Translations under genes and position numbers: made by a program
NCBI GenBank assembly: GCA_977020255.1
Contig: CDROCS010002233.1
Location: forward strand, 186,001 to 250,000
Direction of reading: 5' to 3'
DNA length: 64,000 nucleotides
Source of the DNA: Obrimoposthia wandeli
Lineage: Eukaryota
Part shown: positions 1,331 to 33,130 of the stretch, in pieces
How the letters are laid out: every line of letters begins with the position of its first letter
Position numbering within the stretch: position 1 is the stretch's first letter
Notes under the pieces: model-generated
Seen by the model: the letters and a program-made list of their open reading frames with translations, nothing else
What the model was told of the DNA's origin: nothing
Databases searched by the model: none

Positions 1331-4026
1331 CTGTGATATATACGAGTCCCGAGCCCTTCGCCCCCAAAGGCGCGAAAAATTTGTTGGGACCCCCCCCCTT
1401 GTCCTTTAAAACCGTGCATGTGTGTGGAGTGAAATTTCACTCCACACACCTACACGAAATTTCACTCCACACACATGCACGGTTTAAAAGGACAAGGTGG
1501 GGGGAGGGGGTGTTGATTAGACCGGACACACCCACCTACTTATACTAAACCAGGCTCTTTTCTTGATTTTGATGATCATTATTTGCAACAACATAAAGCT
1601 ACTTCTCACAAGCAATAAACCAAAAGTGTAATATTGCTATATTGGAATGGCCTTCAAAATCTCCAGTTATTAATTTGATCGAAACAGATTGAGAAGTTTT
1701 GGCTTGACGTGTTTATTAAACGAAAAGAAATCCTGAAATAAATCAATATCAATGAGCTAAAGAGTTCTTTTACTGAAAAATGGCTCAATTTTGAGAAATA
1801 AGTGTTCAGAATCTTTATAAATATTTTTCTCGCCATCTTCTTCGGCCTTGTTTCACTTTTTTGTTTTCCTTAAATATGCATATCTATGACCCTTCAGGTC
1901 TCAATTAATATGGTGTTATTTTTAAAACATATTTTTCATTTTAATTTTACTATATTTAACATTTATATATTTTGAACATAATTATTTATTTCAGTTTAAT
2001 TTTTCAAAACCTAACAGATGTAATAAAGGTTCTGCTAGTTTAAAGCGAATACAATTTTAAGTTTTATTTGTCTTTTATATGCTAATATAGCTGTGGTTTT
2101 AAAGATATTTTACGCTTATTTTAAATCGTTTGCAATGTATCGTAGTAAGAGAAAATAAATATAATATCTTATAAATAACTTTAAATATATTATTCACCAA
2201 TCTCCATGTTCTTCTATTTAAAATTTAAAAATATATTGGGTTACAAATAAAAATGTGTACTATGTGTAAAATTGTTATATTCAAAGTCAATATATTTATA
2301 TTTTATATGGAGTATATTTCACAATAATATTAACAATGAAGAGTTCAAGAGTACCAACACTATAGTGCCTAAAATGTCTATATATAGTCATTTTTAGACA
2401 GAATGTCATTAAAATGTCTTAAAATTGCTTAAAATGACTCATCAAGTCTCAAAATCGCGCATACTAACTCAAGGTGTAAAAATCTATTTGAGTTAGTATG
2501 CATGATTTCCGGACTTGATCTAAATTTAGTCTCGAAATCGTACATACTAACTCAAGGCAACAGGTTCCTCCGGGGGGTACCCTTTACTGCAAAACCATTT
2601 TTGAGGTAGTATGCGTGATTTCAAGACTATTTCAAATATCGCGCTATATCTTACCGTTTAAAACAAAATTATTACAAGTGAATAAAGTTAGTAATAAAGA
2701 AACTGAAGCCCTTTTTGCATTGGGTTCTCTACGTTTTGAAAGACGTATGTCTTCATTTCAGAGACTGTTTCCTGATACATTTTGTCTTTCAAGCAATGCT
2801 TAACTCTTCTTTTCTATTGTTAATGATTGTTAGCTTCAAAGTTGAGTTAAATTATACGCAGTTTCAAAATTCCAACCAAAAAAAACTTTATTGGTTTTAT
2901 CAGATGGGTATTTTGTGGGTTTCGGTCTAACACAACATCCAAGCCATTTCTTTCAAAGAGTTTGGAATTTCCCGTTCATTTTTATAACAGTGTATCATCA
3001 ACAATGGAATCTCCTTTTCATTTCCCTGGGAAAAATTTCATGACTTATAAAATATGAAAATACCAAAATTACTAAAAACAATAAATAACATTATGTTGAT
3101 ACATACAGCAAACACTATTAAGCAACAATTGAGATTAAAATCTATGAAAAACAAATTGTTACAGTTAGTATAATTTTTTAAATATAACGTGTTATTCATA
3201 TATACAATATAAGAAAAAATGAGCTGTTTTGAAATATTTTTACGCTTCGTACTTGAATTTATTATTTATATACATGCTCACATAAGTCACATCTTACAAA
3301 CCGTATTTCGTGAATTACTTAGAATTTAATTTAAAATTTTAAGCAACAAATATAAATTAAATCATAAAAAAATTACAAAAATGTTTCTGAAATTCTGTAT
3401 TTATTTAAATGTGCAAACTGCAGAGCTCTCATAATTTATATGATACGAGGGCAAGTTTAAGCCTGATATATATTTCCTGCTCTTTCTTTCATCTTATTAA
3501 GTCACTCTTTAGATAATAATTAAAATCTGAAAAATTTAACTTCATTTCATATAAAATAGCAACATTTGAACAGAATTAATTTGTTTGTTTTGTTCGTCGT
3601 ATTCCAGTACTTTGAAATCAAATTCAACATATAAATCAGATTTGAAGATAAATTCTGTTTTAAAATATTAACTGAATTACAAAAAAATGAGTTAAATGCA
3701 ATTTTACAGTTACATAAAATTTCATCGACTGTATTTAAATAAATTACTAAATTTGTTGACAAAAATGACTGTAAAATCAGATAAAAATCGAGTTTTTCAT
3801 CAGTCAATTGTACAAGGAATTGTGGAACTGACTAACACTGAACTATGAAGTCAGTTTTCTTTGAGAAATTACAGTTTTGTGGCTCAGGGTATTTTTGAGT
3901 GTTCCTTGTATTTTATCGTCAGCTTTACGATTAAAACTTCCACTTCCTGTATTTCGATTAATCTGTTATCAATTCGCATTCACATTTCCACAAAATGCCG
4001 AATACAAAGGGGTTTGTCTTTTTGAC

Positions 4027-5050
4027 TATTGAATCTGTTGAGGTTTCTATTTGAAACTAGATCCTCGTACGTGAGTTCTGTAGATATAGGGCTTACATGT
4101 GGATGTGGCCTATTCTTACTTTACCTAATTTTGGTCTCAAATCTGAAGGTTTTATGTCTGTTGTTTTGTGGTATGTTCGAAGAGTTGTGTTTAGGAAAAC
4201 TAGGGGAACCCTAAAACCTGTGTTGTGTAATGTAAGCCTAGTGCGATTTGCAAGTTAGGTTAGAGTTTATTTCGAGAAAGGGTCTGATGAAACCAAGGCC
4301 TAAATAAATGAAAAACGACGCTAGTGATGCTCATCTGGACGTACCAGAACTTGGAACACCAACTACGTGATTTAAGTCACAGCTAACCTATAGAATTTAT
4401 GTGTTTCGAATATTACTCGAGGGTGGGAATGCCAAGAGTATTTAACAAACCCGCAAATGAATCCACGACAAACTCCATACTAATGTTTACACGAAATTCT
4501 ACATTAGTATTACACAATAAAATGTATACTAATATTCGCAAAACGGTTTATACATTAGAACTATAAGCTAATACTTCACACGGAGTAGGGTGACACTTGT
4601 TTGGTATAGTTCACATTTATTCGTGTGTCGTTGTTAGTTAAACATAATTCTCTTTAACTCAATTACTAATCTTCCCCCTGTTATGTTTAACACAATTGCT
4701 ATTCTTGAATACAATTCCAACTTTCAATTACAATTTCTACTTTTAATGCGAAGTGACTGTAATTCCGCTTGTTCGTATTCTGCACTTAGCAGTTTGTTTT
4801 CAATCAATTTTCTGTTTCTGCTACAATCACTTTCCAGGCCCTTTTTACACGTTTTACACTTTTTCCTTTAACTTTATGCTTATTCCATGATCTTTAAGGT
4901 CTCCATTTACCTCACAATTTATTTTGTAATTTATATTTTTTATTTATTTAAATTTTTTTTTATTTTAACCTTGTCTATTTAAGGTTAGGTTCTTCTTATA
5001 AATATACACATTATTTTATTTCATTTTATAACTTTTCCTAATCTGACGTG
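4027..5050 (-). mobile_element. Probable solo LTR (~1 kb; TGTyAG(G)ATTAGG...CAACA family)
   Basis: Diverged homology (TAGAACTCACG...GAGGATCTA block; GGTCTC/AACCTT block) to 11620-12345 (-), 32246-34030 (+), 38740-39190 (+) and 1830-2000. Confidence 0.5.
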
Positions 5051-5579
5051 TAAATATTTAGGAGCGGCAAGTAATGTGTAACTTAACTCGTAGATTAATT
5101 AAATTACCGACTCTAACAGCTTCATTTGATAACTCATCATATAATGACGAATATAATGTCTAACATTTAAAAAAACATATTGGATTTTAAATGTATGCTA
5201 TTATCAACAGGTATGTTTATGACTCTTATACTAAAAACAAAATTTGGTGTCATTAGGTTTTTTGACTCCTATCAATTAGTAAGTGTTATGTATGGTTCAC
5301 CTTCAATGAGTGGATAATTCCTAATTGCTTAATTAGTATTCACAAGAGTGTCGTTAAGTAGATTCGTCCCTTCGCTTGATTTGTTGAATACCATAGCAAA
5401 TGCGACTAATTTAAACTAAGATGTGTTTGATGAAATGAAATGTAAAGATTTGAAAGATTACTTGCTTATGAATTTTAAATAGGATGTGCTCATATTTCTT
5501 CAGTGACAGATTATTTATCTTTTTCAACGTGATTGAAACGCGTCCATATTTCTTTGTCGAGATAATTCCTCAGCCCACC

Positions 5580-6640
5580 ATAAATTTACAACAAACATGC
5601 CAAAATACAATCAAACAACACCAAACCAATAACATCATCATTACCAGATATAAACACAAATAACAATACAAAAATGTGCACCAATCAACACATCACAATA
5701 ACAATGTATTTCACCGATCACAGAAACACCATTAATCATTGATTATACTTTATACACAACACTCTAAAACAAGCTTACGACCTATCAGAAGATGAGATTC
5801 GGCAGAAAATACTTTCAAAATTACCCACAGACACTTTTAATAAAAATTACTGAGGACATTAAGGACATTCTTATTTTAGACACACTCATAGAAGAGCTCA
5901 CAACATATATCAACAAACACAAAACTGACACAAACAACACCCAGCTATTAGAAAACCTGATCAACCCTAAAGGCACCGATTAGACAGAAACCATCAGAAA
6001 TCGGAAAAATATTCTAAAACACCTTTAAGTAATTAAACCCTCATATAAACCACGAGAAGACTAACATCTTATTAGATCTTACGTTCCTCAAACGGTTTCA
6101 AAAGACACAAGGAATATAATCATCACATTGCAAATGCAAACAACAACCATATAGCCGACATGACAGACCAGATACACAACAACAACAAGACAGACATGAA
6201 AATGCAATATACAATCAAAAACAATCAATCCGACATTCAGAATTGGATAACAATCAAACTAAAATACTCGAAAATTTGAATGACAACATAAAGGAAAACA
6301 ACAGATAATTTCAATTATTTACTTCTATAAACAACAATAAAACATAAAATAACAACAATTTCCACAACAAATCTCCCAACAAACACAACCTCAATTTATG
6401 AAACGATTTGAGAAACAACTCAAGAAACAACTCATCACATTTCAGATCAAATAATACATACAATACAACATCATACTCCATAAATAACTCACCACATCTC
6501 AGATACAACTATACACATAATATATATATATACACATAAGTTCCTTCAGAAATAGTTCACCACATTTCATCACATATTACAATCACACACGTAACACATA
6601 CAAAAACTACTTATAGGCTAACACCACAAAACATACAGGT
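5580..6640 (+). mobile_element. Possible decayed LINE 3' region (A/C-rich strand)
   Basis: Strong A/C skew and short fragments such as HPAIRKPDQP*RHRL; no clear catalytic motif. Confidence 0.25.
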
Positions 6641-6699
6641 GTTGGGATTTTAAAAAAAAATTAAAATATAAGAATTAATTATGTCAATTTAAATTGACA

Positions 6700-7320
6700 T
6701 TACTGAAATGCCCACAATCAGGGAGGTATATTTTAATCAACCTGCGACGGAATAAACCCGTTGCGGCCTGCCTTGGCCTCGTCAGGGAGGTGGCTAAAAT
6801 GCCAGAAATAAGTCTGACAAAAAGTAAAGTGATTTTGACCACCAAAGATTTGCCGCCCAGTAGCAGCAGTCTCTCTCCTCCACCTTCCTCCGTTATCATC
6901 TATGCTGCGAGAACGGCATCGTCATCATCATCCGAAAACAACGGCATCATCACTATCTGCAGCGATCTAGTGCTGCTGTTGTGTATGTTGTGCCTCGGTT
7001 GATGCAGCTTCTCGGATTTCCCGCCTGCCCAACCGTTCAACTATGTTCATGCTAACAAGTCGCTAAATGCGCTGCTGCAGCCGCTTTACCTCACCGTCTT
7101 GGAGATTTTTCCACCAGACACCCAGGTCTTATCTTCTTTCCAAGCAGATAACCGTTCAATAGTGGCAATTGTGTTCACTATAAAGGGAAATTGACATTTC
7201 CTTGCCTGCTTACTTGACTGAGACTTGTGATTGTGTGTGCTGTCCCTAACTCGCTCCTCTATCTATCCATGTGTACATGTGTCTGATGCTGCCACAATAT
7301 ATTTGGAAGAGGCCTGAGGC
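6700..7320 (-). mobile_element. GC-rich non-coding element carrying a hammerhead (retrozyme or Penelope pLTR-like)
   Basis: GC-rich island ending in the hammerhead. Shares an ATAGTTG..CGGTTGG.CAGGCG...GGGAAAT block with 8100-8700. Confidence 0.5.
6740..6791 (-). ncRNA. Type I hammerhead ribozyme with a GAAA->GCAA core change
   Basis: Minus strand reads ACCTCC-CTGACGA-GGCC[AAGGCA]GGCC-GCAA-CGG[GTTTATT]CCG-TC^GCAGGT. Stems II and III pair fully; stem I has one C-C mismatch. Confidence 0.7.
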
Positions 7321-7379
7321 ACAGTTCTCAATTTCACAAAAACAAAAAATTACTGATCCAAAAATTAATCAAAACAATT

Positions 7380-7990
7380 TATTGGTACCTAATACAATTT
7401 TTCCCCATTTGATGTTTATCTGAATCATTTACAAACTTGGAACAATTACAATTAATTGAAACAGTTTATTGGTATCAAATACAATTTTTTCCCATTTGAT
7501 GTTTATTTGAATCATTTACAAATTTGGAACAATTACAATTATTGGAAACAGTTTCAACACAAAAACAATTATATTGAAACCACCATTATTTTGAAATTAC
7601 TGTTTGGCTTCCATTCTCGGTTGTTTGGACTTGCTATTCGATTTTATTGTGTTTTGGATTACACTTAATAAATTTATATAACACAGATCCCGAGCACACA
7701 AGTATGAAAGCCCATGATTATGTTATGAAAATATAATCAAAATGACAAGATTTATTTGATGTCTGTCAAATCAGAGTCTAAATCAGGATATCCAAATCAA
7801 TTGTTAGGTCAATCTAAAAAAATGGTTAGGTCAATAGTATCAAGGTCCTTCAAAATTAACTGTTGTTCTATATAATCGAACAGATATCTAAGGATATTCA
7901 AATCAATTGTTAGGTTTCAGTATCAAGGTCCTTCAAAATTAACTGTTGTTCTGTATAATCGAACAAATATATCCGATGAATATCTCCGAA
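7380..7990 (+). repeat. Two local ~90-95-bp tandem duplications (7390-7545; 7790-7975)
   Basis: TACAATTTTT..CCCATTTGATGTTTAT x2 and AGTATCAAGGTCCTTCAAAATTAACTGTTGTTCT x2. Confidence 0.75.
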
Positions 7991-8099
7991 CAAATATTTC
8001 CGAAAACTGTGTGGTAAACTTTGTAAAAATAATGATAATAATTTATTGTGTATTTTATCGGCCTTCAGCCACGCTATTTATAGCTCTTTCCTTTCAAAG

Positions 8100-8700
8100 G
8101 GCTATTTATAGGCCATACCTGAAATCAAATAAAAATCAGCAACAAGTCTCCGTTTAATCCTTAATTTTGTGTCCAAAATCCAAATGTCTGCCTCTACACA
8201 TACATATACATATGTATACATGTATGATGCATGTGGCCGGCGAAAGTGTCGGACTGGATAGTTGGGCGGTTGGACAGGCGAGCAAAAACTGGGCAGGTGG
8301 GAAATATGGGCATAAAACTGTTTAACACACACAGACATAACGCGAATGAGTGAGTGAGAGAGTAGTGAAAGAGTAGTCAGAGGGTAGAGAGTGAGAAGAG
8401 TGAATGAGTAGTGAGTAGAAATAGTGTATATGTGTCAGAATATATATGTGTGTGTGTGTGTAGTGAATTGTGCATTTGTGCACATTCACACCATATGTCG
8501 ACGATAGTCGTCGGCACATGAAAAAGGGAAAATCTTCCCTTCTTATCTCTGACTTCACGGGCAATTGCCCACCGCGAAGTCAGAGATAAGTCTGCCATAC
8601 CCCTGATGAGCCCGGCAGGGCGAAACCGGTTATGTCGGTCGGGGATTGACCAGAAGATAATTAAAATGCCAAAGTGCATAATATTTCATTTTTGCCAGAA
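8100..8700 (+). mobile_element. GC-rich non-coding element with hairpins and a hammerhead (retrozyme or Penelope pLTR-like)
   Basis: Perfect 15-bp stem CTTATCTCTGACTTC/GAAGTCAGAGATAAG (8542-8590) immediately followed by a hammerhead. Confidence 0.55.
8594..8653 (+). ncRNA. Type I hammerhead ribozyme with intact core; predicted cleavage after C8640
   Basis: CCC-CTGATGA-GCCC[GGCA]GGGC-GAAA-CCG[GTTATGT]CGG-TC^GGG. All conserved core nucleotides are present and stems I-III pair. Confidence 0.88.
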
Positions 8701-8749
8701 CATTTCCCTAATTAAGGAAAGTTTTTAATTAATTAATTTCATTTTTATT

Positions 8750-9430
8750 TTATATCTTTTATTTTTTAATAAATCCAAATGTCCAAAATATTTAAAAATA
8801 TTCCCAACAATTATACACAAAAACCACATACCACATTACATTGGCCTAAACGCTATATCACCCTTCAAATACACCATAAAATTTCCTTATTGACTCTGGT
8901 GATTCCATTTCTTTAATACGCAAATCAATATACACACAACATAGACACATAACAATGAAAATAAACCCTATCCTCAAAGTCACAAACAACATAAAAGTAA
9001 ATAATTATGGTGAAACAATGCAGAACCTCATAATAGACAACATATCATAAAACTGGCGCTTCACAATCGCTGATATAAATCAATCCATATTAGGGTCACA
9101 TGTTTAAGGAAACTTTCACTTACTAATTGACTCATATAACAAAACAATATCATCACAACACACATTACACAACTTTTCAAAATCAACACAAAATAGAACA
9201 CATAATCACAAAATCAAACCCATAAGTAGTTCAACAAATCCAAACACTTACAAAGACATACTCATACTCAACTTACAAATTCAAAACTCAAGGAAACCCA
9301 CAATACCCATAACACAATCAAAATCTAACACAACCAGACACAAAGTAGTAAGATCAAGATATATATATTACGTAATGGTGAGACCACAACAGTAGCATAA
9401 AGTGACAACTCCACGGTACTGCATCACAAT
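8750..9430 (+). mobile_element. Ty3/Gypsy pol relic (aspartic protease region)
   Basis: FLIDSGDSIS (DSG catalytic motif) and WRFTIADINQSILGS..*..FHLLID, matching the Gypsy protease pattern W.F.IADV..PILGADFL. Confidence 0.65.
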
Positions 9431-9898
9431 AAAGAACCAACTCGTCAAAATTAGTCATACAAACAGAAGTTGCCAATTTGAAAAAAATGTTTTCATTAAA
9501 TTTGAAAGTGTATAATCAGTTGATGCTACCGAAAGTGACCAATATTTTCTATTTTGTCTCTATTTGTGTTTTATTCAACTTTATTTTATAATTTATTAAT
9601 TTTAAAATTAATTTAAACTTATCTAACATACCTCGATGTATTGGTCTGGTCTGAAATGATGGCCAAGCTGCGAAAGCGAACCTCGAGATCTTTTAAAATT
9701 ATATCAACAAAAATTTTATAAAATTTCATAATAATCGTAAAGATAGTGTAACTCCCCCATTTAAAGATTCATTGTTAGATTCTAACGATCCAACAAATCA
9801 TTTTTCCATCAATACAGACGATGGGCACACTTCTAAACCACAAAATTATTATAAGGATTTGAAGAAAGTAAATTTGTCTTTAAAGACATTCAATTAAA

Positions 9899-10804
9899 TT
9901 GAAAGGCCGTTTAGGTAAAGATTTCAAGAAGAAATTAAGTCAAAAAATAAACAAAAATAAACAAGAAACCTCAAAATATTTCAAAATAATAATGTCAAAA
10001 AATTTAACAATTAACGATTTAATATTAAAAGTATTTAATAGTTTCGATACTAAAAACATATCTATTAATAAATACGGAATGCCTTTTGATTGTGAGAGCA
10101 TAATGAATAATGTTTTACATGATGGAGCAATAATACATGCATTCCCAAAAAGATTTTGTGGTGATCATTTGTATCAAACATATAATTATTGCACAAATAA
10201 CGATCATGACAATATCGATAACTGTCATGTTAAAATGGAACAATATTATCATTTTAAAAAGGGGTATATTTTCCCTGAATGTAATATTTTATATATAGAT
10301 ATGATGTATATGTTTTTTTAATTCAGACATTTCTTTAGCTAATTTTACACGTAAAAATTGAATTATTACTATAAACATCATGTTAATGATGTTTTCGCCG
10401 ATAGAGAAGTATATACTGATAATATTGTTTCACCTAAACAGATTCATTTTGAAGCACCATAAAAATGTTTTGCACCTAATTCATGTATTAACTTCATTAG
10501 TAATCCGATGATTGCAGATCCGTTAATTTTACCTGATGAATCATTAGGCTTATCACTTAATAGTTTATATCAACCTCTCTCTGATTTAGAATTTGATATG
10601 TGGAAAGATGCAGGCTTCAATGAACCATTTAATAATCAGCAAATAAAAACCAGTGAATCGATACATGAGATTATATCTGATATTTTCAATGAACCTTTCA
10701 ACTCACCTAATAGCGGATTGGTAGGTATAGATTCCGATGAGATACTGTCTGATATTTTTGTTGATTCAATACTTGAGTTGACAGATTCTGATATTATGAT
10801 ATAG
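9899..10804 (+). other. Two ORF fragments of unknown identity directly upstream of the Polinton pPolB relic
   Basis: 140-aa Cys/His/Tyr-containing ORF (9899-10321) and 98-aa acidic ORF (10508-10804), same strand as the pPolB fragment. Confidence 0.3.
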
Positions 10805-10849
10805 TTAGATGGTACTTTGGATGATAATTTACTTGACTACCCATTATAA

Positions 10850-11530
10850 ATAAATCAAGTATGTGGTAGTGTCCAAACATATATTATTTTTGATGTCAGC
10901 ACGCCTACTTTAAATAAAGTCGAAGTGAATGAGTCTGTGAAAACCAATTTAATTTATAAAATAGATTCATTCAGTAGTTGTAAGAATCTATTTGTTGTTA
11001 GGGTTCAATTTGTTGATGTTGAGAAACTGAAAAGATTTGGTGTATAAGTTGTACGCTCGCCATTATAATGATGAATGTATTACACCCAGTTGTGATAAAC
11101 TAAACAGTTATATTGAAAATTGTTCCGAGCAAAGTAAGGGTTGGGTAGTACAGAGAAAATAGCAAATTAGTAATAAATTCACGGTTTTTCATCTATATCG
11201 GTTTATGTTATATTCCAACACCATCGACCCTGACTTCAAATAGAGTGAGAGTTAATGTACAAAATGATGATGTTGAATGTTTTATATGCAATACTACATG
11301 TTTGCATCATGACGAACTCTCTATACGTTTGAGAAAACGACCATCTTCTTATTATTCCTATTTAAATCAATAAAGGTGATCATCGAAATAGTTTTCGTCT
11401 ATTTGCCATCTTAAGATAAGCATTTACTTTGTTATCATTAGGTGAATAATGATGACCAAATATCAAATCTGTACTTTTGTTTACACCTATTTGATCAATA
11501 AAAGATGGATACACAGATACTTAATCAAAT
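10850..11530 (+). pseudogene. Polinton protein-primed DNA polymerase B ORF, N-terminal region relic
   Basis: Frameshifted IENCSEQSKGWVV...LVINSRF...CYIPTPSTLTSNRVRVNVQNDDVECF resembles the Polinton motif E..GSGW...L.IN.Y.PL.G.SYI.LP...K.AIINV.N.D..CF. Confidence 0.65.
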
Positions 11531-14599: not shown

Positions 14600-15480
14600 A
14601 AAACGCTGCAGTTATATAGATACACATGCAGTCACACATGGAGAGAGAATGTGTAAGTAAGGAGAATGAAAAGAGTCAAGACAGGTCGGCCATGGCAGCA
14701 GTAGAATCAGTGGGAACTGTAGTGACAATATTTAGCAGACCGAGTAGACGTGCTGCAAATATATCTGCTGTTGTTGTTGCTTGGGTAGAGGCAGATACTT
14801 CATCCAGCAGGGGCATATCGGCAGTAGAGGGAAGTCATAGATAATCTGGAGTCGTTGGTAGCGGTGTAGCGAGATGCAGAATGCATACCTGCACACACAT
14901 AAACACGCAGGTTTTAAGACATGGACGTCAGGTTTCAGCTGTGAGTGGTACTGGTAAAATAGAAGGACTGGTTGACCCGTCGCGGGTAGACGCGGCTGAA
15001 CCACTAGGATCTCGGGAAGGCAACAGTTAAAGAATTCTGGAACATAGACCGTATCTTCAACACACTTCTGTGATCGCGAGAGGGGAGTCATGAAGCGATG
15101 ACAGCGGTAGTAGCATTACGGAAGGGGAAGACAGATAGATAATACGTCCTCAAAATTGCAATACTATGCAGTCGGTAGGTTGTGGGTACGAAAGAGAATA
15201 GTGTTACCCTACTACTGCCGAAGTTTCATATAGCCGAGGGAGAAGGCAGACGAGAGGGGAGAAAAGGTTGGACATCGCGAGGTAGATTTTGCCGTCAATC
15301 GATCCGGGTGGCAACAGACAAGGACGGTTAAGCGATTGTCAGCTGGTCATCGTTGTCGCCATCGGAAAGAAATCCGGGCTGTCCGATCTAGGACTCTCCT
15401 GGGCGAGACTAACTTAGGATAAAATAATCGTTTCTCAAATTCTGCTTTGATCGCAGATCGAATTTTCCGCTTCATGGCCA
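14600..15480 (+). other. GC-rich non-coding island, possibly related to the hammerhead-bearing elements
   Basis: Begins ACACATGCAGTCACACATGGAGAGAG, like the 5' end of the 6700-7320 element. No intact hammerhead core found. Confidence 0.3.
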
Positions 15481-16576: not shown

Positions 16577-17006
16577 TCAAGTTGCAGCTGCAGTTGGCTT
16601 CACGAGAATGGTGCATTCTGCCAGAGGCTCCTCCACATCCAGTTTGTCTTCCTTGCAATCCTCTTCATCGTCCTCATCACCATCCTCATCTTCTCCTGTT
16701 GCTGCTGCCTCGTCACAGTAGCCGCTCTGTAAAAAATGCGACAACGGGAATAATTGGTCCAGTCTCTTTTTCTTCTTCTGGCGCATCCGCCTCGTTTTCT
16801 GTTGCAGATAATTGCCGGGGAGTGGTAGTGCTGTTGTTGCCACGGTGCTACATCCACTGCTCCCGGCTCCACTGCTGGCCAGTCGCTTTCGCTTTCCGGG
16901 ACCGCAGCTTTTCTTGGCTAACAGCTTCTCTGTGGCCTGGCCCTCCACCATCTGCTTCACTCGATACTCCAGTGTCGAGTGTGGTACACCATAGTGGTTG
17001 CCCGCC
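16577..17006 (-). CDS. E93: E93/Mblk-1-like gene, last coding exon (second half of HTH-psq 2)
   Basis: TTGCAG|G acceptor (phase 2) joins SVHK to AGNHYGVPHSTLEYRVKQ, matching E93/LCoR ...YG(V/I)PHSTLEYKVKE. Basic KRKR/KKKKR and acidic tail follow; stop at 16577. Confidence 0.88.
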
Positions 17007-18189
17007 CTGCAAGTGACCAGCATGCTTATCACCATCAGCTCCTTGTTTGTAAATATCGACAGTAGCGACTTGAAGAACTTTAAATTTTGCTTTTTATGCA
17101 GTATTAATATATAATAATTGTATGATTACATTAAGTAAATATTTAATCTTTTTTTGCAGCTAATGATGTAAATTAATCTCACGTCTTCATTTCTACAAGC
17201 CATCCGGTTACTTCACTAAAGAGACCCACAAATCAAACCCATTATAATTATGAGAAAATGTAGAGCACATTCATGTCCAGTACTTCTACTACCTGAAATA
17301 AAAACACAAGTTTGGATTATCTTTATTTTTAAAGTGTGAAAAAGTTGTAACTATAACAATTTTTTCCTCCTACTAATATTTTATTTCCAAATTTGTTAAA
17401 AACGGAAATTATGATCTCCAAACTTTCAGACCGACTTTATACTTTTAGAAAACTGTAAAAACTTTGTTTCACAGCATGAGTAACATTTTTGGGTGTAAAA
17501 TTGGTTCTTTCGGAAGAATAAAATAGATTTTTTTAACATTCAATTGAAATTTGTAAGAAAAGATTTAGTTTCTCACTTTCTTCACTTTGTTGTTAAATCT
17601 GCGTTTGCCAAAAAATTCGCTCTAAAACTTTTGGTATTGTCTATTACTCTAAGTTGTGAAGATTATTGAACGATCACTCGACGTCACAACTACCTAATTA
17701 ATATTATTAGTTATTTTTTCCGTTGTCTTCATGTAACTTATTTTTGATATTTTAACATATTATCCTTCCATTTCTTATTAGGGCAACAAATCAGCAGCTA
17801 ACATTACACCCTATTGGTCCGTCTGTATTTGGTTGTATTATATCATGGTTTTACTTATAAATTGAAAACTATTCTCTTTCTATTTTTAGATATCATTGTT
17901 ACATTTAAATTTTAAAAATACGCATGTTATTTAAACAATTACTAATTTTTACATATTTAAAGTTTGAAGAAAAAAATTAAAATCTGGATAATTGAATAAT
18001 CAAAATCAGGATAATCGAGGTTTTACTCTATTTAGATATTTTTATATACCAGCCGGTTCCAACACTGGGCCAGTTTCACATATTGTATCACTGATAACTT
18101 ATTAATAGATCGAATATAAATAACCTATTTTCATCTTTTTAGTTGTTAAATTTGTCAGGAAACAAAGTCTTTACGTAAATCTTTCCCTG

Positions 18190-18680
18190 TAAAATCACTG
18201 ACTGTTTTCACTTTAATTTTTAGGAACATTTACAAGTCAAAAAATGTATAAATTATAAAAGGGAAAAAATTTAAATAATTTCAAATAGTTGAGTTTTTTA
18301 AAGGAACTGTTTTTTGTGTGTTGTACAAATATTTTATTAGACTAAACAAAAATGACAAATTAATTTATGTTGACTTATCTGATGCGTATATTTTATAACT
18401 ATTTGCGAGCTGTGATTCCATAAATAACATCAGTTTTTACCTATCATTGCAGTATTTATGGTATATCATGCCCTGAACACTTTAAAAACGTCCTGTTCTC
18501 AATAACTTTGTCTAACTGAATCATAACTGAATAAGTCAGATCATTCTAAATTCAATTTACTGGTGTTAATGATGTTTTATAAGATATGATTTTATGCTAT
18601 CTCTATTTCGTTGTTGAAATACTAATCTTGCAGCTGCGTTTCGAATACTTTGGAGGTGATTCATGTTTTTAATTCACTTT
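18190..18680 (-). mobile_element. L2-clade LINE 3' fragment
   Basis: LQSIRNAAARLVFQQRNRDSI... resembles the L2 ORF2 C-terminus LQLIQNAAARL...DHITP.L..LHWLP. Inverted homologue of 20065-20515. Confidence 0.65.
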
Positions 18681-19024
18681 TTGCAATTCTTGATTACTGA
18701 TAAGTCGATTCGTAATATATTCCATTGTGTTGTTGCTTTTTCTTATTTTCAATTCATCGTTTTGAATAAGATTCAGTTGATAAACGGCTTTAGTTGCTGA
18801 AGATATATCATAAAAGAAACTTATTCATCAGATTAACATGACAGTGTTGTAATCCGTCAATCCATCGGCTACTTCATCTTTAAGAGATATAATTCTCGAA
18901 CCCCAATGTCAGAAAAAACCATTTAAGTAAATTTTAAAAGCATCAGCCGAGTTCCAGGCTCCAATTCTCCCAGGATTGCTTCTATACCACAACCCCTAAA
19001 ATCTTTTCATGGGATGGACTAATT

Positions 19025-20096
19025 ATTTATGGATTCTCGGTTTTTGCTAAGGACGATACACATAGCCACACCTCTGTCCAAAATGCTTTTTAGGATTGTA
19101 GCAACTGTCTCTCCACTCCATGTATGCAATAAATTATTTCTTGAATTCAATTGAAAACGATTCCCTTTTCAGAAAAATGGCAAAAAATTTTGCTTTTATA
19201 ACTTCTTAAAATTGAAACCCATTTTAAATATATTTTATTAAATTATACGCCAATACACTGTGTTTCAACATTAATTGATTTATTTAAACAAACAGATCAA
19301 TTTAAATTGTTTGCATGTATATTCATGTGCTTTAGGATGATGGGAATACTATTAAATAGTCTTCCTAAAATATTTTTACGATTAGGGATGCTATTTGAAA
19401 TAGGATAGTATTTTGAACACGGACACTATTTGGAGTTATCAGTTATGAATTTAAAAAGAAAAAGCTACTTCATAATGGAATACATTACAATTTGAATTAT
19501 TTACATCCAAAAATTAAAACAAAAAGATTCATAACATGAATCAACTCCAAAGTATTCGAAATTTATGGATTCTCGGTTTTTGCTAAGGACGATACACATA
19601 GCCACACCTCTGTCCAAAATGCTTTTTAGGATTGTAGCAACTGTCTCTCCACTCCATGTATGCAATAAATTATTTCTTGAATTCAATTGAAAACGATTCC
19701 CTTTTCAGAAAAATGGCAAAAAATTTTGCTTTTATAACTTCTTAAAATTGAAACCCATTTTAAATATATTTTATTAAATTATACGCCAATACACTGTGTT
19801 TCAACATTAATTGATTTATTTAAACAAACAGATCAATTTAAATTGTTTGCATGTATATTCATGTGCTTTAGGATGATGGGAATACTATTAAATAGTCTTC
19901 CTAAAATATTTTTACGATTAGGGATGCTATTTGAAATAGGATAGTATTTTGAACACGGACACTATTTGGAGTTATCAGTTATGAATTTAAAAAGAAAAAG
20001 CTACTTCATAATGGAATACATTACAATTTGAATTATTTACATCCAAAAATTAAAACAAAAAGATTCATAACATGAATCAACTCCAAAGTATTCGAA
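19025..20096 (+). repeat. Apparently exact 536-bp tandem duplication (19025-19560 / 19561-20096)
   Basis: Both copies start ATTTATGGATTCTCGG and end CCAAAGTATTCGAA; no differences noticed by eye. Confidence 0.9.
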
Positions 20097-20515
20097 ACAC
20101 AGCTGCAAGATTAGTATTTCAACAACGAAATAGAGATAGCATAACATCATATCTTATACAAAATCATTAACTACCAGTAAATTGAATTTAGAATTATCTT
20201 ACTTATTCAGTTAGACAGAGTTATTGAGAACAGGATGATTTTAAAGTGTTCGAGGCATGCTATACCATAAATATTGCCATGATAGTTAAAACTGATGTTA
20301 TTTATGGAATCACAGCTCGTAAATTAGTTATAAAAAATACGTCAACATAAAATAATTTGTCCTTTTTGTTTAGTCTAATTAAATATTTGTACAAAACACA
20401 AAACATTTTTTTTGTTTTTGTTTTAAAAATCAACTATTTGAAATTAATTTAATTTTTTCCCTTTTATAATTTTTATATTTTTGACTAGTAAAAGTCCTAG
20501 AAATTAAAGTAAAAT
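20065..20515 (+). mobile_element. L2-clade LINE 3' fragment
   Basis: LQSIRNTAARLVFQQRNRDSITSYLIQNH*LPVN. Confidence 0.65.
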
Positions 20516-20565
20516 CTGTCTACTGACAGTAGTGAGTAGATGCACTCCGCAAATTAGGAGCTCAC

Positions 20566-20811
20566 TTGTGAACGCTCATTTCGCCGAAACGGACGGCTTC
20601 AATGGCCTTGTTGAGCATCTCGGTGTTGTACTGACGATAGTGACCTCTCTTCTTATGGCGCCCGGTCTCTGTGGTGCCTAGAATACCGGTGCTGCTACCT
20701 GCACCATCGTCACTAAGACAAGCCAGGTTAAAGTCCCGTATTTGACTGTATCCGTGCTGGTTCTCCATTTTCTGCTGTTGCTCCTTTGGGTCGCTGAGAT
20801 GACAGTTATAG
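20566..20811 (-). CDS. E93: E93-like exon containing the first half of HTH-psq 2
   Basis: KKRGHYRQYNTEMLNKAIEAVRFGEMSVHK matches E93 KRG.YRNY....L..AV.AV..GEMSVHR. Donor AA|GTGAG at 20565. Acceptor uncertain: phase-2 ATCAG at 20812; other AGs up to ~20850. Confidence 0.88.
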
Positions 20812-21249
20812 CTGATGTTATTATTATATTGCACAGCTATCTGAAATGCTGAGTATAAAAGAAACAATAAGTGATTTTAAAATATAAAAAACATTAGACC
20901 GTGTCGCTGGGCAAATATGGTTCACAAGATTGCAAATATTTTTTTAAAATTATAACAGGAAAATTTAGTAAAATTTGAAAATAAGAATTTTAAATTTTAT
21001 AAAAATGTAAAATATATAAAAGTAGCATAATTACATTTATTTTTAGAATTATTCAAATTTTATTTTATTTAAAGTTCCATCTTGACATTAGATTTATTTT
21101 CAATTTTCACCAAAACTGCATCAGAAAATTTGACTTATTTTTAAATTATCAATTGATTTTCTTTATGTATTTAAGGCTTCAAACTAAATATATCTACACA
21201 GTGATTTGTGTTTTTAAGTCGCTTTATCACATTTTCAGTTACTTTTTTA

Positions 21250-22449: not shown

Positions 22450-25400
22450 TGCACAATCTACACTCACTCTTCCAACAATCTATCAAAACTGAAGCAAATC
22501 TCTACGTAGAAACCATCTGAAACAGAAGTGAGTAATGCTATTATAGGTTTCTTTCTTTCTGCATCATTACTCTCTTTTTGAAAACTTGAACTTGTTGGCC
22601 ACTCTTTGATAGACATTCTGGTACATGTCATAACAATTTATTCTTATCACATTGAAATTCGTCACCTTATTCTTTCATTACCTTATTCTTATCACATTGA
22701 AATTCGTCACTGTATTTTGTTGAATTTTGTTGATACGGAACGTATCGCCATTGTTCAGGAATTGTGTCTTCTTGTAATCGTCCTACGCGATTAGCAACGA
22801 ATGTTTTATATCACCAGCTGGGTTGTTTTATCCACCAAAGAACGGTATAACTGTCCCACCAAAACACAACTGCCTTGTTGTTTTTCTTTGTCAATCGACT
22901 ACCTTCACATGCCACTATTAGCTCTAATCTTACCGACTTTAAAGGTGTAACTCTTGCTTTTGATGCAATTAGTCGAACTTTCACTTTATACAAATTGGTT
23001 TCTCGGATAAAAGATATGGCTCCATAAGCTTCAATAGAAACATCCACAAATAAATGTATCTTTGAAGCCTTGCCATCTGTTTTTATCAAGCAATTTTGAA
23101 TTTGAACCTCAATTAAAGCCAGACAACCTTTTATCCTATTTTAAATATCTTCTTTCAAAACGTTACTTAAACTGTCATCCTATCCACTTCCAGTTAATCA
23201 AATGTGCTGCATTATTATCTTAGCAACTATCACAGCAAGGTTTATTAATTCTAAAGGATCGAATATTCTGGTCAAATAACCTAAAAACTTTATCTTGGTA
23301 AATACATGGCCATCATTCAAATTTATTGAAAACGGAAAAACATTATGTGTCACTAGCCAGCTTATTCCTCAAGTTTTTTGTTATTATATTGAGCCTTCGT
23401 CGTGTATTTGTTGTCCACTGGCTCAATTCTCAAATAGTATGATTTACATCGTCATAATTGTTAATCCACTTCTTCGCCACCATTCCAACTTCTTTCCAAA
23501 CTTCAGTCAAATAATCTTTCAAACTTATTGCTTCTTCCACTGAGTTAATCAAATCTAACGTGTTGTCCATACCGGTTCTTCGTGAGGTTTGATTGAATGT
23601 AAAAGTATTTTCTCTCATCATTAACTCTGCTAACAATGGTGGCGTGTTAAATCCAAAAATAACTCTTTAATATTCATAAATCCACAGTTTCCCTTCGTTA
23701 TTCTGTCACAGAAATCTTAACCATATTCGGTCCTCTTGATTAACAACTATTTGCAAATATATTTCAGAAACATCAAACACTATAGCTACTTTTTATTTGA
23801 AACGAAAAAGTAACTTTGCCAAATTACCTTGTAGTTTAGGTCCGCATCTCATTTCTTTTTGCTACAGCTTCAAATTCGATACGAATCTTTGTGGTTTTTT
23901 ATGCATTCGGATAACTGGAAAGTGAAGCAAATATTTTTTTTGTATTTTCATCCTTTGATGCATCTACCACCTTTAAATATCCTTTCTCTATTTGGTTATC
24001 GATTAAAAAATTATATTCTCTCTGCAAAAATACATCCTTATTTCGTCGTATATACAAACATTCCTATCTATTTAATACAAAACTTTTAACTTAGGAGTAA
24101 TTTATTTTATTTTGTTTCCACGGTATTTTAATTGAGTACTGCCAATCTACTCTCGTAAATGACTTAACCGTTGAAAGATATATCTATCTATCGGTTTTAG
24201 ACATCTCAAATTCGTCATTGTCATTATTTTCTCAAAATCTTCTTGTTTGAACGTCAAGCTCAATATTTTTTGAAAATGCGTGAATGAAATTTGTTTATCT
24301 ACGCATTTTTATCCTAGTGGAGTTAATCTGGCTACAGAATCATCTCGATTTCAAACGATTTTATTAATTGACCATTGTAGTTCAAATTGGTCAGTATTAA
24401 GGATTATATAAATTTAACTGTATTTTTCTATCGAAGATTTTAGATGATTCCAATTTCTTGCTGCATCTACCCAATCTATTTAAATCGGCTGCACCTTTTT
24501 TAACAACAAAACATTTATAAATCTCCTTATCTGTCTAATATAACTTTGAATTTTGCAGTTTACCTCCTTACAAATCATTACCTTATTTCTTCCTCCAATC
24601 GTTCCAATATACATGGACTTCATGTAGTCTTTTAAATATAGATAGTCAACAATCTTGTCACTAATAAAACTGGCTGTACTGATTTTTACAACTTCTGTAA
24701 CTTCTTAAGTGAGATATCTCATGTCCATCAACATATTTCCTCGACTTGTAATCGTTAACGTTAACCCTGTATAACAGCTAATGATGTTTGAAGATACATC
24801 CTTATTTTTAACAAAATTTTGTATGTCTACAAGCTTTACCCAATCAGCATTTTTTAAACAAACCTTACAGATACCCATATTTTTTATCCAATTTATTCTT
24901 TTTTCTACTTTTATTAGCTTTCATTTTTTGCACTGATCAGTATATGATAAGTTAAATATTTGTTTAAGTTCATGGGATTTTGACACTGGGATTCTGTATT
25001 TGCAGCTAAACTTGAAGACCGTGCGTTTTCTAGAAGCGCACCCAATTGAACCACTGCAGTCTCTTCAAGGTGTCACTAGATGCCACACAGCGCCAGCCAC
25101 CGGCGATCCTTGGCCATCCCTAACCACAGACATATAGGAACGTGCTGCAGCACCACTTTCACTGGCTATCATCAATTCACCATCTCTGTCAGTATCGAGT
25201 GCGGTACAGCCGCAGTCTATGTCAACCCCTTTGCAAGCCCAGAGGTTACCTTACCGCTTTTTGGTAAGGGGCCCTGACTCAGGGCTTAACTGGAACTCAT
25301 TCTTCATACTCTTCAGGATATGTTTATAATGGCCCCTCGCTACTTGGCACGCATCTATTTCATCTAACCTCGCTGAACAAGCTTAAGCCCCAAACTCAAT

Positions 25401-25700: not shown

Positions 25701-28043
25701 TATATGCTTCACTGTACTATCACATGTATTTTAAGACCAGTGAACCTCGAAATCAAACTTTACAAACTGCATATCAATTGTAAACATCACAAATTCAAAC
25801 TTATTTCCTAGCGACAAAAAAATCACAAACTGTACATTTACAAAACATCTGCAAGAAAAATAATACGCACTCTAAATTGCAACAATCACACAAAACCGGT
25901 TTTTATTGGCCCAAATTCAAATCAAAATTGAATTTTACTAATTGCTGATTAAGCTAACTGCTTAATCAGCAATTAGTCATCAACTATTTTTACTTGAAAA
26001 ATCTTTTTTTATTTAAGAGTTATGATCTTCCAAACACATAGTCCAGAACAGCCTGTTTTGCAAGGCGTGATTTTTTCTCATTGATTGACTATTTTTTATT
26101 TACTTTTTACTGACAAAAATGCACTCTTTTTACTGACTAGTTAAATCATACCCTATTTAAAAATTGTGTTTGTCTTCTGTTCTTTTCTGACAGTTTTTTT
26201 ATATACCCCTTAATTTTGTGAAAAATAACCGGAACGCTAATATGGACCTATTTTAACATATTTGTAAGAGACTGACAAACATTTGATTATTATTTAAGAT
26301 TTTTTGCGCAAACATATTTTATTTGTCAATAAATATTTAATGTTAGATTATTAAAAAATATTTTCTTAAATGACTGATTTTGGTTATTTTTGGTCAACCT
26401 TAGCAAAAATACTGACAATTGATAAGTTTACCGTATTGTCCTAAGTATGTCTTGGAAATTTGTAACCATTTTAAAGCTCCAACATATTTTTTAAAGTTAT
26501 TAAAACTACATATATATTAGGTATTTATCTGAGTTTTACTTTTAATGTTTAGTTTTATACTTCTACATATGTATTATTTAATTCTTTTAGAATTAAACTA
26601 TAAAATCCGTTTTACATTTGCTACATTTGTGAGCAACTACATGCAAGATATTGCAAGAATTTTGAAGGATGAATCCCATGAAGGGTAAATTTAGATGAAA
26701 CATTTCAAACAAGCACCTTGAAATTTCATTAAGAATTGCAACCACTTACATCGAACTAGACAATAGATTCACAAATATACTCTACCAGGGCTCTTCTGTT
26801 TCTCAACATGGATAAAATAAATAGTCAGTATTATGCTTGTTTTTGTGATAGTCTACTAACAATAGTAAGTAGATGCATTCAGCAAAATAACAATTTAGAA
26901 ATCAGATCATAGTAATTTATTAGTAAACATTTTAACTTGGGATAATAAAGATTCAATAAATAAAAAGTATAACATTTTCAAAAAACGATTAAAGTATTAG
27001 AAATAATTGATCTTAAAGATCGTTTTCAAAATACTAATAATGGAAATAAATTAAAATTCTTTTTTTAATGACATACTAAAATATAAACATAAGAAGTTAT
27101 ATTCCAATAAAATTATTCTTATTTCTGATAATGAAAATAAAATGAATATTTTCGATTATACGGATTTGGGTACCATTTATAGGCCCGGTAGATAATCAGA
27201 TAGCAATAATTAAGGATGTCATTTTTAAAATTTCATTTGAAGGGATTTTTTCATCGATTTAATAATCTGAGTATTTAGGATGGTTTAAATTAGTATAAAA
27301 TCTAACTGTTATCTATTGTATCCTTTAGTGACCTTTACATTTGTTTGTAACAAATCAAAAGGATCCAAATGCGTATAAATTCCAAATATTCAAATATAGG
27401 AAGAAAATAATTTGATCTTTCACCCAATTTTATCTATAACAATATACATACAATGTTAAACCGATAAACCTAAACTTTCTAATCCCAAACAGAATCACAT
27501 AGTTATTTACATACTACAATGAAATTAATGATCCCTGTGAAGTAAATTCTAATACTCGTCTTTGAAATGTCGACTGTTCAAATTAAATTACGTGATCCAG
27601 CAAATTGGCCTATTGGGGCCGAATATAATTGTTGCACTTAAAGTACTTGTCTGGTTTTATAACCAAATAGTTTTATAAACGCCATTATAATCATAATGAA
27701 TTTCGTGATTTCTTAGTCTTTCCGGTGGAAATCTGTATCCTGATGTAACTGAGGCAAAGGCAACAATTGATCAAATTAATTTCCAGATCATCGGCTTGAC
27801 TGTTTTCATAGGCTTTGAAAATTTATAAAACTTATATTTTGAGATTCACTCTTTGATGCTTTGTTTAATTAACAATGTCGAAAACAGTATTTTATACGCT
27901 GCAGCAATAATTTTGACTATTTTATTTTAGGAAACAAACAGTGAAAAGATTTCATTATTTCATGGAAGAACACTTTTGCTTCAAGCAAAACCAGATATAA
28001 TTTTTTATTGAATTACAATGTAGCAGATGAAGAGGTAACTTAC

Positions 28044-28412
28044 TCAAATGCGGCGGCAGTGGAAGGACATATGTCGTCAGAGCCAGAATAGTTGCCTGTA
28101 ACTATGCTACCCTCATCGTCCTTGCAGGTGGTCGCAGCATGCTGAGATGACTGAGGAGGCGGCGGAGGCAGCAGGGAGGACACAATGGCAGCGGCCACAC
28201 TGTTGGGCTCTGGCAAGTCCCCAGCAGACGAAGAGGTTCCAACACCGCCGCTACCACCACTCCCGCTACACAGACTGGCGGCCACTAGCTCCTCGAGACT
28301 GCTCATGAAGCTGTTGAGGCCATTTGTGTTGTTGGCGGCAGGATGTTTGCTGGTTTCAGTGGCCCTCGGACTACCGGAATTGCTGGAGCAGGGACTATTT
28401 ATGACATGGTCT
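28044..28412 (-). CDS. E93: E93-like internal exon (Ser/Gly/Pro-rich)
   Basis: ATGCAG|A acceptor (phase 2, matches the upstream donor), open frame, and GA|GTAAGT donor. Confidence 0.78.
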
Positions 28413-28499
28413 CTGCATGAATTACATTAACAATTAAATTAATTCTAAAAAATTAAGTTTTTTAGGGAAAAAAATTTTGTGTTTATATAAAATATTTAA

Positions 28500-28720
28500 T
28501 CAGACTGAAAAACGTTTTTTTAATTGACTTCGATCTGATAAGTTCTTTGCTCATTTACAAGCTGTGATTCCATAAATAACAACAGTTTCTACATAACACG
28601 ACAATATGTGTGTGTATAGCATGCCTCTATCACTTTAGAAACATATCCGTTCTCAATAATTTTGTCATCAATATCAGTCAATGTTATGAAATCCAATCAT
28701 TAATAACTATGAAACATAAT
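28500..28720 (-). mobile_element. Third L2 3' fragment
   Basis: AGCTGTGATTCCATAAATAAC...GTTCTCAATAA block shared with 18410-18510. Confidence 0.55.
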
Positions 28721-29274
28721 GTAGCCTGCAGAATGGCTAGAGATAGAATTTTTCATATTTAGTCTGTCCCGATGATATCAGATTAATTCATACTATATCA
28801 CCAGTAAAATGCCCCACTAGACATTCATTTGAATTCGTATGACTTCAATGAAGAAAGCCACATATCGTACTTATTTGAAATTTGAAAATAAGTAGAGCCC
28901 GTTACAACCCAGTATTTCTAATTATTCTAATTTTGAACAGGCTTTTCCAATACTTATAGTTCCAACTGAACTTGGGTAAAGAAACAGGCAAACAACAGCT
29001 TTTAAACACGAATTTTCCGTAGAATTAATGGTCGGATTGTGTTTGTCCTGTCATTTTCATAGCACACTGACCAGGCTAGTCACAACTCCACATTAGACAC
29101 AAGATTCTCTTTTTCTTACGAACTGTGTTTTTTCTGATTCTTGCTTTCAATATTGGTCAGTTAAATGTCTTAAAGGATAAACATAATATTACTTATAACC
29201 ACTACCTAAAAGGTGACATAGGTCAGTGATAAAAACAAACAATTTTAAGATGTTGTAGTGCAAAACAAACTTAC

Positions 29275-29753
29275 TTGCGCCTACAGTGGTTCTCAGAAAA
29301 CGCCTTATTTGGTGCTCCAACCAAATAGGGAAACTCAAATTCCAAGTTAGGAATTGAATTTGTGGAGCTGGATGTCTTATTGCAACAATTGGTATCACGC
29401 GTGGTCTTCTTGTTGTGCTGATTGTTGGTTGCAGAGAAATCCGCACTGCTGGCTGTGTTATGCTGTTGGTCAAATGGCGAGGCAGAGTAGGGATTGGTCC
29501 ATGGCTGGTGGTGGTGGGGATGGGGTGGTGGCAGTGGTAATGGAGGCGGGCTGTGGCGGTAATGGTGCAGTCGCTGGTGACCACTGTGAGGGGTGTCACT
29601 ACCAGGAACAGTGGGTGGTAAGAACATGGAGCTGTACATAGATGAGAAGAGGCTTTGCTGGAACAGCATATGAATGTAGCTGCTCATGATGCTTTGTAGG
29701 TGACCTGATGCAGCGGTGTTGGAGCTGCTTCCGGGTACACCGAGGTTGGACAT
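29275..29753 (-). CDS. E93: E93-like internal exon (His/Pro/Ser-rich)
   Basis: GCAG|ATG acceptor (phase 0) and AA|GTAAGT donor (phase 2); phases are consistent with both neighbouring exons. Confidence 0.78.
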
Positions 29754-32859: not shown

Positions 32860-33130
32860 CAACTCTATTCCGAGCAAATCTATTCCGAGCAATTCTATTC
32901 CGAGCAATTCTATTCCGAGCAACTCTATTCCGAGCAATTCTATTCCGAGCAACTCTATTCCGAGCAAATCTATTCCGAGCAATTCTATTCCGAGCAATTC
33001 TATTCCGAGCAATTCTATTCCGAGCAATTCTATTCCGAGCAATTCTATTCCGAGCAATTCTATTCCGAGCAACTCTATTCCGAGCAACTCTATTCCGAGC
33101 AACTCTATTCCGAACAACTCTATTCCGATA
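32860..33130 (+). repeat. 15-bp minisatellite CAA(T/C/A)TCTATTCCGAG, ~18 copies
   Basis: Read directly; it explains the periodic spurious ORFs (AILFR / SNSIP / YSEQF). Confidence 0.95.

Follow-up and report, generated by a model that had tools for sequence, protein, structure and literature searches.

Two diverged type I hammerhead ribozymes in solo-LTR-like insertions of Obrimoposthia wandeli

In published accounts, retrozymes divide by host: those of plants combine LTRs with type III hammerheads, and those of animals are LTR-less tandem repeats with type I hammerheads and a link to Penelope-like elements. Plant LTR retrozymes are alike only in their end boxes and ribozyme, have 4-bp duplications, and also occur as solo LTRs (PMC4918200). 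Animal retrozymes are described without LTR, PBS, or PPT (PMC7229834, PMC6765202, PMC7761336, PMC6431247, bioRxiv 10.64898/2026.07.22.740005), and RtcB circularises their RNA in vitro (PMC7229834). The hammerheads of metazoan Penelope-like elements have a minimal fold: helix II is long, helix I short, and helix III almost absent, and an extra base follows position 9 (PMC4209133). It is established that LTR integrase leaves TG...CA ends and a 4-bp duplication (PMC4558846). A literature search confined largely to open-access papers returned no account of a hammerhead within an animal LTR, nor of one from a planarian.

We analysed a 64,000-nucleotide stretch of the O. wandeli assembly (GCA_977020255.1, contig CDROCS010002233.1, positions 186,001 to 250,000), hereafter the window. 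It contains two hammerhead motifs, A and B, each located in an insertion that resembles a solo LTR:

7721–8809, + strand (hammerhead sense): unit A, a 1089-bp solo-LTR-like insertion, TGTTAT...TCCCAACA
7717–7720 (left) and 8810–8813 (right), + strand: target-site duplication of A, ATTA, exact 4 bp
6640–7683, − strand: unit B, a solo-LTR-like insertion of 1044 bp, oriented opposite to A and bounded by the same end motifs
7684–7720, no strand: spacer, 37 bp of target DNA that separate B from A

By analogy, the unit would work most like a plant LTR retrozyme, but it is not a member of that group, being type I, three times longer, and without a paired form at the locus. The two share a hammerhead inside an LTR-like repeat, a unit without coding capacity, a 4-bp duplication (exact in A, three of four positions in B), solo copies, and a likeness between families that is confined to end boxes and ribozyme (PMC4918200). 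The differences are that the host here is an animal, that the plant ribozyme is type III and this one type I, that the plant LTR spans 300–400 bp as against 1044–1089 bp, and that the plant ribozyme is blocked by a long arm whereas the one described here is predicted to be free. The plant elements have two LTRs with PBS and PPT, whereas the locus has no PBS, PPT, or paired LTR beside any end of A or B. Metazoan non-LTR retrozymes resemble the locus in their canonical type I fold, loop 1–loop 2 contact layout, many copies (PMC7229834), and strongly folded neighbourhood, and are reported from platyhelminths in general. They are described as 150–450 bp tandem repeats with long duplications and without an LTR, and with abundant circular RNAs of 170–400 nt; here, single copies lie in TG...CA units of about 1.05 kb with 4-bp duplications. 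Penelope-like pLTR hammerheads likewise have type I topology near an element end, and inverted neighbours occur among them (PMC4209133, PMC8557442); the present ribozyme differs in its full-length fold, its stable helix III, the lack of an RT or GIY-YIG match in the 36 frames scanned, and its integrase-type ends. A structured RNA module in an LTR is also known from the non-autonomous elements Cassandra, Helenus, and Ajax, with 4-bp duplications in the animal Helenus (PMC10886601), and a 4-bp duplication in a solo LTR is shown for the cestode ta-TRIM (PMC4558846). The module in those elements is a tRNA or 5S promoter, or is lacking, and their total length is below 1 kb.

Hammerhead A (8590–8655, + strand) is a canonical type I ribozyme composed of the following parts:

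8603–8609 (CTGATGA) and 8622–8625 (GAAA), + strand: core, from the sequence and a descriptor scan
8610–8621, + strand: stem II, GCCC/GGGC, 4 bp, with loop GGCA
8625–8629/8635–8639, + strand: stem III, 5 bp
cleavage triplet GUC, + strand: predicted cut after C8640
8597–8602/8641–8646, + strand: stem I, five of six pairs, with an A.G mismatch at 8599/8644
8591–8594/8651–8654, + strand: outer stem I (stem Ib), 4 bp beyond a CC/UGAC internal loop

The conserved core (CUGANGA, GAAA, and NUH) is complete, and the three stems have their open end in stem I, which defines the type I topology. A strict descriptor run on both strands of the window matched hammerhead A as the sole hit and gave no match in 1000 dinucleotide shuffles of the window, which upholds the intact type I hammerhead with full core and three stems reported in an earlier note; a loose descriptor gave 66 matches in 1000 shuffles. 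The core and stems also place the GUC where that note had predicted cleavage, after C8640. Type I hammerheads follow a loop contact rule with U at position 1.7 and A at the end of loop II. Judged from the sequence, U8647 and the GGCA loop of A match this layout of loop II and stem I bulge. An Rfam scan of the window returned no family at gathering score. The best sub-threshold match was Hammerhead_HH9 (RF02275) at 8587–8664, with 19.8 bits against a cut-off of 52 and E 0.12. HH9 and the Schistosoma Sm-alpha hammerheads share with A a six-pair stem Ia, an internal bulge, a stem Ib, and a four-pair stem II; they differ from it in that A scores so far below the cut-off and in that the window holds no tRNA by ARAGORN, where an Sm-alpha-like SINE would have a promoter head derived from a tRNA. 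HH9 is a conserved, single-copy ribozyme. Nearest-neighbour folding of A prefers stem I displaced by one base, with C3 paired. In this model, which includes neither core nor tertiary energy, the active register has a probability of about 0.00 and costs 5.8 kcal/mol. The predicted fold of the complete unit A does not form the hammerhead.

Directly 5′ of hammerhead A lies a cluster of hairpins:

8542–8556/8576–8590, + strand: perfect 15-bp stem enclosing the GGGCAATTGCCC palindrome, from folding
8559–8570, + strand: 12-nt palindrome GGGCAATTGCCC inside the 15-bp hairpin
8460–8489, 8496–8516, and 8524–8541, + strand: three short hairpins, from folding

The 15-bp stem with its palindrome and the small hairpins at 8496–8516 and 8525–8540, all listed in the earlier note, form in our folds, together with the further one at 8460–8489. 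The stretch 8480–8680 folds with z = −6.75, none of 200 shuffles being as stable, and 8460–8579 folds with z −5.5. Loose contig ends at 8488 represent variant forms of the hairpins in other copies. Counting this one, the window has three sites with a perfect stem of this kind. Perfect long hairpins were noted at two other places (1413–1481 and 25937–25977), as was an 18-copy, 15-bp minisatellite open in several frames (32860–33128). The palindrome is not unusual on its own, because the window contains 52 perfect 12-nt palindromes. Stem Ib is predicted to form with a probability of 0.95 when the 15-bp hairpin is complete and of 0.14–0.32 when the 5′ arm of the hairpin is missing. From these predictions we infer an insulating role, in which the hairpin would keep its own 3′ arm off stem Ib. 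A palindrome RNA dimer is predicted to be 11 kcal/mol better than two monomers, a gain that any hairpin makes likewise; the palindrome could seed RNA dimers. Both the 15-bp hairpin and the palindrome are absent from unit B.

The earlier note had missed the TG...CA boundaries of unit A with their 4-bp duplication, and also hammerhead B, a diverged type I motif on the − strand at 6728–6804 with a predicted cut after C6746. Its window copy has a non-canonical core (GCAA) and a mismatch in stem I. We aligned contigs from four runs (X1 to X4; one sample of one study, which may be the source of the assembly) to 5400–11400 at 80% likeness. The contigs of the B region differ from the window copy at 6763, in 95,846 of 95,905 depth (X1), and at 6744, in 4,268 of 4,503 depth. 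Hammerhead B in the window thus looks like a decayed member of its family, though an assembly error could also account for the differences. Rfam found no hammerhead in 6400–7500 down to E 10, as expected because the core is damaged. Over the ribozyme, the alignment of A with B is significant, none of 500 and none of 300 shuffles scoring as high. Four of the 15 hammerhead pairs differ on both sides between A and B, and 28 of the 30 cells pair. Slid alignments give at most one such pair, and 34 of 500 shuffles reach the observed value, in what is a comparison of two sequences only. The CC/UGA bulge and the GGCA loop end are common to both ribozymes. A model built from A and B detected no third copy in the window; its best match elsewhere reached 18.6 bits and lacked the core, among 15 other matches in all. 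To the eye, two strings on the + strand, at about 4283–4310 and 9650–9685, look like minimal hammerhead cores in decay; the fuzzy descriptor and the search with the A/B model matched neither of them.

Beyond the ribozyme, the likeness between A and B is not significant: equally high scores come from 106 of 300 local shuffles and from 36 of 300 stretches taken elsewhere in the window. Full-length colinearity of the two was rejected: the global alignment was not equalled in 200 shuffles, but its significance disappeared once the ribozyme was removed. An upstream match of 20 in 23 nt was reached by nine of 500 shuffles, a marginal value for one of nine comparisons. Two further signs of likeness are weak: tandem duplications occur toward the far end of each unit, and the composition profiles of the units run parallel.

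The two ribozymes point outward, each to the identical 8-nt end TCCCAACA, at a distance from the cut site of 169 nt in A (8809) and 106 nt in B (6640). Unit B is flanked by CAGG and CAGA, a target duplication of three of four bp. The further parts of the units and the right flank are as follows:

8641–8809, + strand: post-cut segment of A, 169 nt, AT-rich, with a small hairpin and AATAAA at 8768
7785–7970, + strand: internal tandem duplication at the far end of A (self-BLAST 7821–7887/7905–7970 and 7785–7809/7891–7915)
7363–7554, no strand: 87-bp tandem duplication at the far end of B, from repeat analysis
8814–9050, + strand: right flank of A, a decayed retroelement with an aspartic-protease-like frame at 8880–9047

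The far-end duplication of A may be U3-enhancer-like, and other copies skip parts of it (joints 7806->8054 and 7967->8064). Between 6900 and 8450, one of the 123 TG starts (7721) reads TGTTAT, with the exact 4-bp duplication of A, and one of the 114 CA ends (7683) reads ATAACA, with the 3/4 duplication of B; these end motifs were chosen after seeing the data. Across the window, five of 924 TGTT anchors have an ATAACA partner at 900–1300 nt and an exact duplication, and 41 of the 924 have a partner and a duplication of at least three of four positions, A and B being included in both counts. One of the five, a chance-looking TGTTGG...ATAACA pair with an exact duplication, spans a likely E93 exon (29464–30368), and A itself has a rival 5-bp duplication match at 7543.

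The contigs support three of the four unit ends; the left end of A has no direct support among the rows listed. At the right end of A, sequence to about 8811 is common to other copies, because a single-copy contig starts at 8782, its first 31-mer reaching 8812. In X3 and X4, other copies break off at CCCAACA, as seen among the 24 of 2267 loose-end rows listed. The 6639/6640 junction of B is spanned by an exact contig (6485–6700), and another copy, with 18 differences in 239 nt (X3), stops matching at 7688. The flanks are joined in other copies, 6598->8863 being present in all four runs with an X1 depth of 1027. The frame 8880–9047 in the right flank has ESM Atlas feature matches of 0.90–0.93 to RVP/Asp_protease_2 clusters and no Pfam match. 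Both units were thus inserted into an older, decayed LTR retroelement, as the flanks are joined elsewhere and the right flank is protease-like. Pfam gave no informative match on 21 short frames around the locus. A single DNA transposon at 6640–8809 with 8-bp inverted ends was rejected on the mismatch of its flanks, CAGG versus ATTA.

Exact single-copy contigs in X1 have a depth of 41–53. The X1 bins over 8415–8816 have a mean depth of 137,000–153,000, which on division by 46 gives about 3000–3300 single-copy equivalents, and the single positions 8487, 8681, and 8693 have 28,000–43,000, or 600–940 equivalents. The bin containing hammerhead B (6606–6806) has 57,000, or about 1200 equivalents, and the remainder of 7008–8414 has 5–22 equivalents. 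Summed contig depth is not a copy number, and these equivalents are orders of magnitude. The same two peaks, at the A and B hammerheads, occur in all four runs. Both hammerheads belong to families of roughly 600 to a few thousand copies; the descriptor scan and contig depth support a type I hammerhead in a non-coding, many-copy mobile family, in line with the non-coding element and retrozyme-like family of the earlier note. Only about 300 nt of unit A is high-copy, depth dropping steeply upstream of about 8470. The drop fits diverged LTR subfamilies that keep the ribozyme end, and a short separate element fits it equally well. Contigs that match from 8543 on and have other AT-rich sequence before it number 47 in X1 and 30 in X2. 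Another 21 X2 contigs depart after 8589, with a consensus that begins like the stem I strand of hammerhead B, and a few copies skip 8590–8661, in the region of contig departures at 8649–8664. As sequence patterns, the departures at 8543 and 8649–8664 suggest mixed subfamilies. Pattern scans for relatives in metagenome contigs and viral contigs gave no match.

The window also contains the E93/Mblk-1 gene:

16577–56294, − strand: E93/Mblk-1 gene with two Psq helix-turn-helix domains

Psq helix-turn-helix matches lie in the frames 55887–56294, 20565–20876, and 16580–17125. Among 24 homologs, the Mblk-1-like protein of Schmidtea mediterranea is the best (76% over 63% of one exon frame), and its C-terminus is matched by the last exon. 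The host is therefore most likely a triclad planarian. The E93 stop codon at 16577 (−) is about 7.9 kb from hammerhead A (+). The earlier note's placement of the hammerhead downstream of the E93 3′ end therefore stands as a position past the stop codon, and not as a link to the gene, A being on the other strand; E93/Mblk-1 is a bystander. An E93 intron contains an inverted repeat of about 560 bp (82%) at 18200–20520, which encloses a perfect 537-bp direct duplication (19025–19561 and 19561–20097), either a transposon or an assembly artefact. A 263-bp satellite array of about 35 units occupies 42166–51234 and 52857–53117. It has many small indels, which may be real or long-read error, and one inverted unit lies inside a Polinton-like stretch. 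Polinton/Maverick-like remnants occur at 52193–52918, 62612–63046, 783–1540, and 63404–64000, a related repeat-rich stretch being present at both window ends. One Polinton-like frame has a weak adenoviral protease match (PF00770, E 0.004), and another such frame, with no Pfam match, resembles the end of a DNA polymerase B by motif. A BEL/Pao peptidase A17 fragment was found at 22811–23140 (−, E 7e-11), and the frame 14732–15115 (−), also with no Pfam match, begins with what we take to be a zinc-knuckle-like motif.

We infer the LTR identity of the units and the orientation of the ribozyme from the DNA anatomy, covariation, and depth observed above. That A and B sit in solo LTRs, in either orientation, seems somewhat more probable than not to be so. 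The narrower proposal, that they sit in solo LTRs of planarian LTR retroelements with the ribozyme in the sense of the element RNA, falls a little short of an even chance by the sequence, and we adopt it tentatively. It is supported by two diverged hammerheads that are anchored alike relative to an identical 8-nt end, and further by the contig support for three ends, the insertion into an older retroelement, the paired changes in the ribozyme, the far-end duplications and composition profiles, and the similar pattern of plant retrozymes. Points that weigh against it are the lack of significant likeness beyond the ribozyme, the choice of end motifs after the fact with an imperfect duplication in B and chance pairs in the background, the high depth of only part of A, the absence of PBS, PPT, and paired LTR at the locus, the disfavoured stem I register of A, the two-sequence size of the covariation comparison, and the origin of all four runs from one sample. 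The mechanism that follows from it goes beyond the DNA anatomy at every step. The hammerhead would lie in the R/U5 part near the 3′ end of an LTR of about 1.05–1.09 kb, and a promoter in the far, fast-changing U3 part would drive a transcript through the hairpin cluster. The 15-bp hairpin would fold first and leave stem I free. In a two-LTR element, one cut per LTR would release a unit-length RNA without terminal repeat, which would have to be circularised or bridged ahead of reverse transcription. A host RtcB-type ligase might close this RNA into a circle; copying and insertion would fall to a Gypsy-type reverse transcriptase and integrase, own or borrowed, in a cycle like the one put forward for plant LTR retrozymes (PMC4918200). 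The window copies would then be solo LTRs left by recombination or by short cDNA.

The same two units can be read from the other side, as solo LTRs running TGTTGGGA...ATAACA, with the hammerhead antisense in U3 and cutting antisense or read-in transcripts; it might, for example, limit double-stranded RNA and piRNA silencing. An AATAAA close to the unit end is common to A and B only when the strand opposite the ribozyme is read, at a distance of 35 nt in A and 16 nt in B; unit A also has a pair of TATAAATA boxes on its minus strand, at 8110 and 8082. These points speak against the sense orientation. The hairpins fold equally well on the minus strand. A hairpin region of A at 8060–8120 (z −4.3 for 8040–8159) has two CTATTTATAG boxes, which are TATA boxes if the minus strand is read. 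Unit B, however, has no perfect TATA box in that sense. Tandem duplications are typical of U3, and in the antisense reading they would fall in U5, with the conserved, structured end as U3. We regard this orientation as improbable. A departure from LTRs altogether would make A a solitary monomer of a non-LTR retrozyme or a SINE-like hammerhead repeat of about 300–340 bp (about 8470–8809), moved by Penelope-like machinery via small circles. The far TG ends and duplications would then be due to chance, or the monomer would be a passenger taken up by an LTR. Its canonical type I fold is the type known from animal retrozymes (PMC7229834), the stretch of high depth has the size of a retrozyme and folds strongly, A and B are unlike beyond the ribozyme, and monomers are common in some families (bioRxiv 10.64898/2026.07.22.740005). 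Nevertheless, the hammerheads are not tandem at this locus, none of the joints listed (15 of 153) leads from the end of the unit back to where it starts, and both units share the end CCCAACA and have duplications of 4 bp instead of long ones. A 13-nt direct repeat (8176/8771), the sole long one, would bound a 595-bp unit; we rejected this unit because 59 of 500 shuffles do as well, and other copies continue beyond the repeat. Such a monomer, the main rival, appears unlikely, if by no means negligible, and would constitute an ordinary new retrozyme family. The retrozyme-like family of the earlier note accordingly holds for the type I hammerhead and its many copies, and does not extend to the animal non-LTR form, given no tandem repeat at the locus.

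The inverted arrangement of A and B recalls Penelope-like elements, of which inverted arrangements and 5′ truncation are typical (PMC8557442), and hammerheads on opposite strands 100–700 bp apart are reported from Schistosoma (PMC4209133). The units might then be the pseudo-LTR ends of such elements or of non-autonomous derivatives, forming an inverted, 5′-truncated pair, and depth does fall away from the hammerhead end. Yet A and B have a 4-bp helix II, a 6-bp helix I, a 5-bp helix III, and no extra base, against the minimal fold, and they are too different for one insertion event, each having its own short duplication. None of the 36 frames scanned matches RT or GIY-YIG. We give this reading little credence, and the metazoan Penelope pLTR mentioned in the earlier note does not fit a motif that is canonical rather than minimal. 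A cis-acting ribozyme, domesticated and linked with the E93/Mblk-1 locus in the way of the conserved amniote HH9 ribozymes, would agree with HH9 as the best Rfam match, itself below threshold, and with hammerhead B on the gene strand about 9.8 kb beyond the stop codon. A many-copy family in nested repeats, with A on the opposite strand and the core of B damaged, makes this reading very hard to believe.

The sense-oriented LTR reading can be extended to a class of elements. It is possible, without our calling it probable, that animal LTR retroelements, non-autonomous or autonomous Gypsy-type, keep a full-length type I hammerhead in every LTR and comprise many diverged subfamilies. Self-cleavage would strip the genomic RNA of such elements of cap and terminal repeat, a circle would serve as the template for copying, and the palindromic hairpin would act as a dimer-initiation site in one subfamily. 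If so, this would be an animal LTR retrozyme with a ribozyme topology different from that of plants, and so probably of separate origin. A type I hammerhead in animal LTRs would break the split between plant and animal retrozymes and would point to more than one origin of ribozyme capture by LTRs. It would also provide, in a stem-cell animal that is tractable, a system of many copies in which to ask whether circular RNA allows LTR elements to replicate without a terminal repeat.
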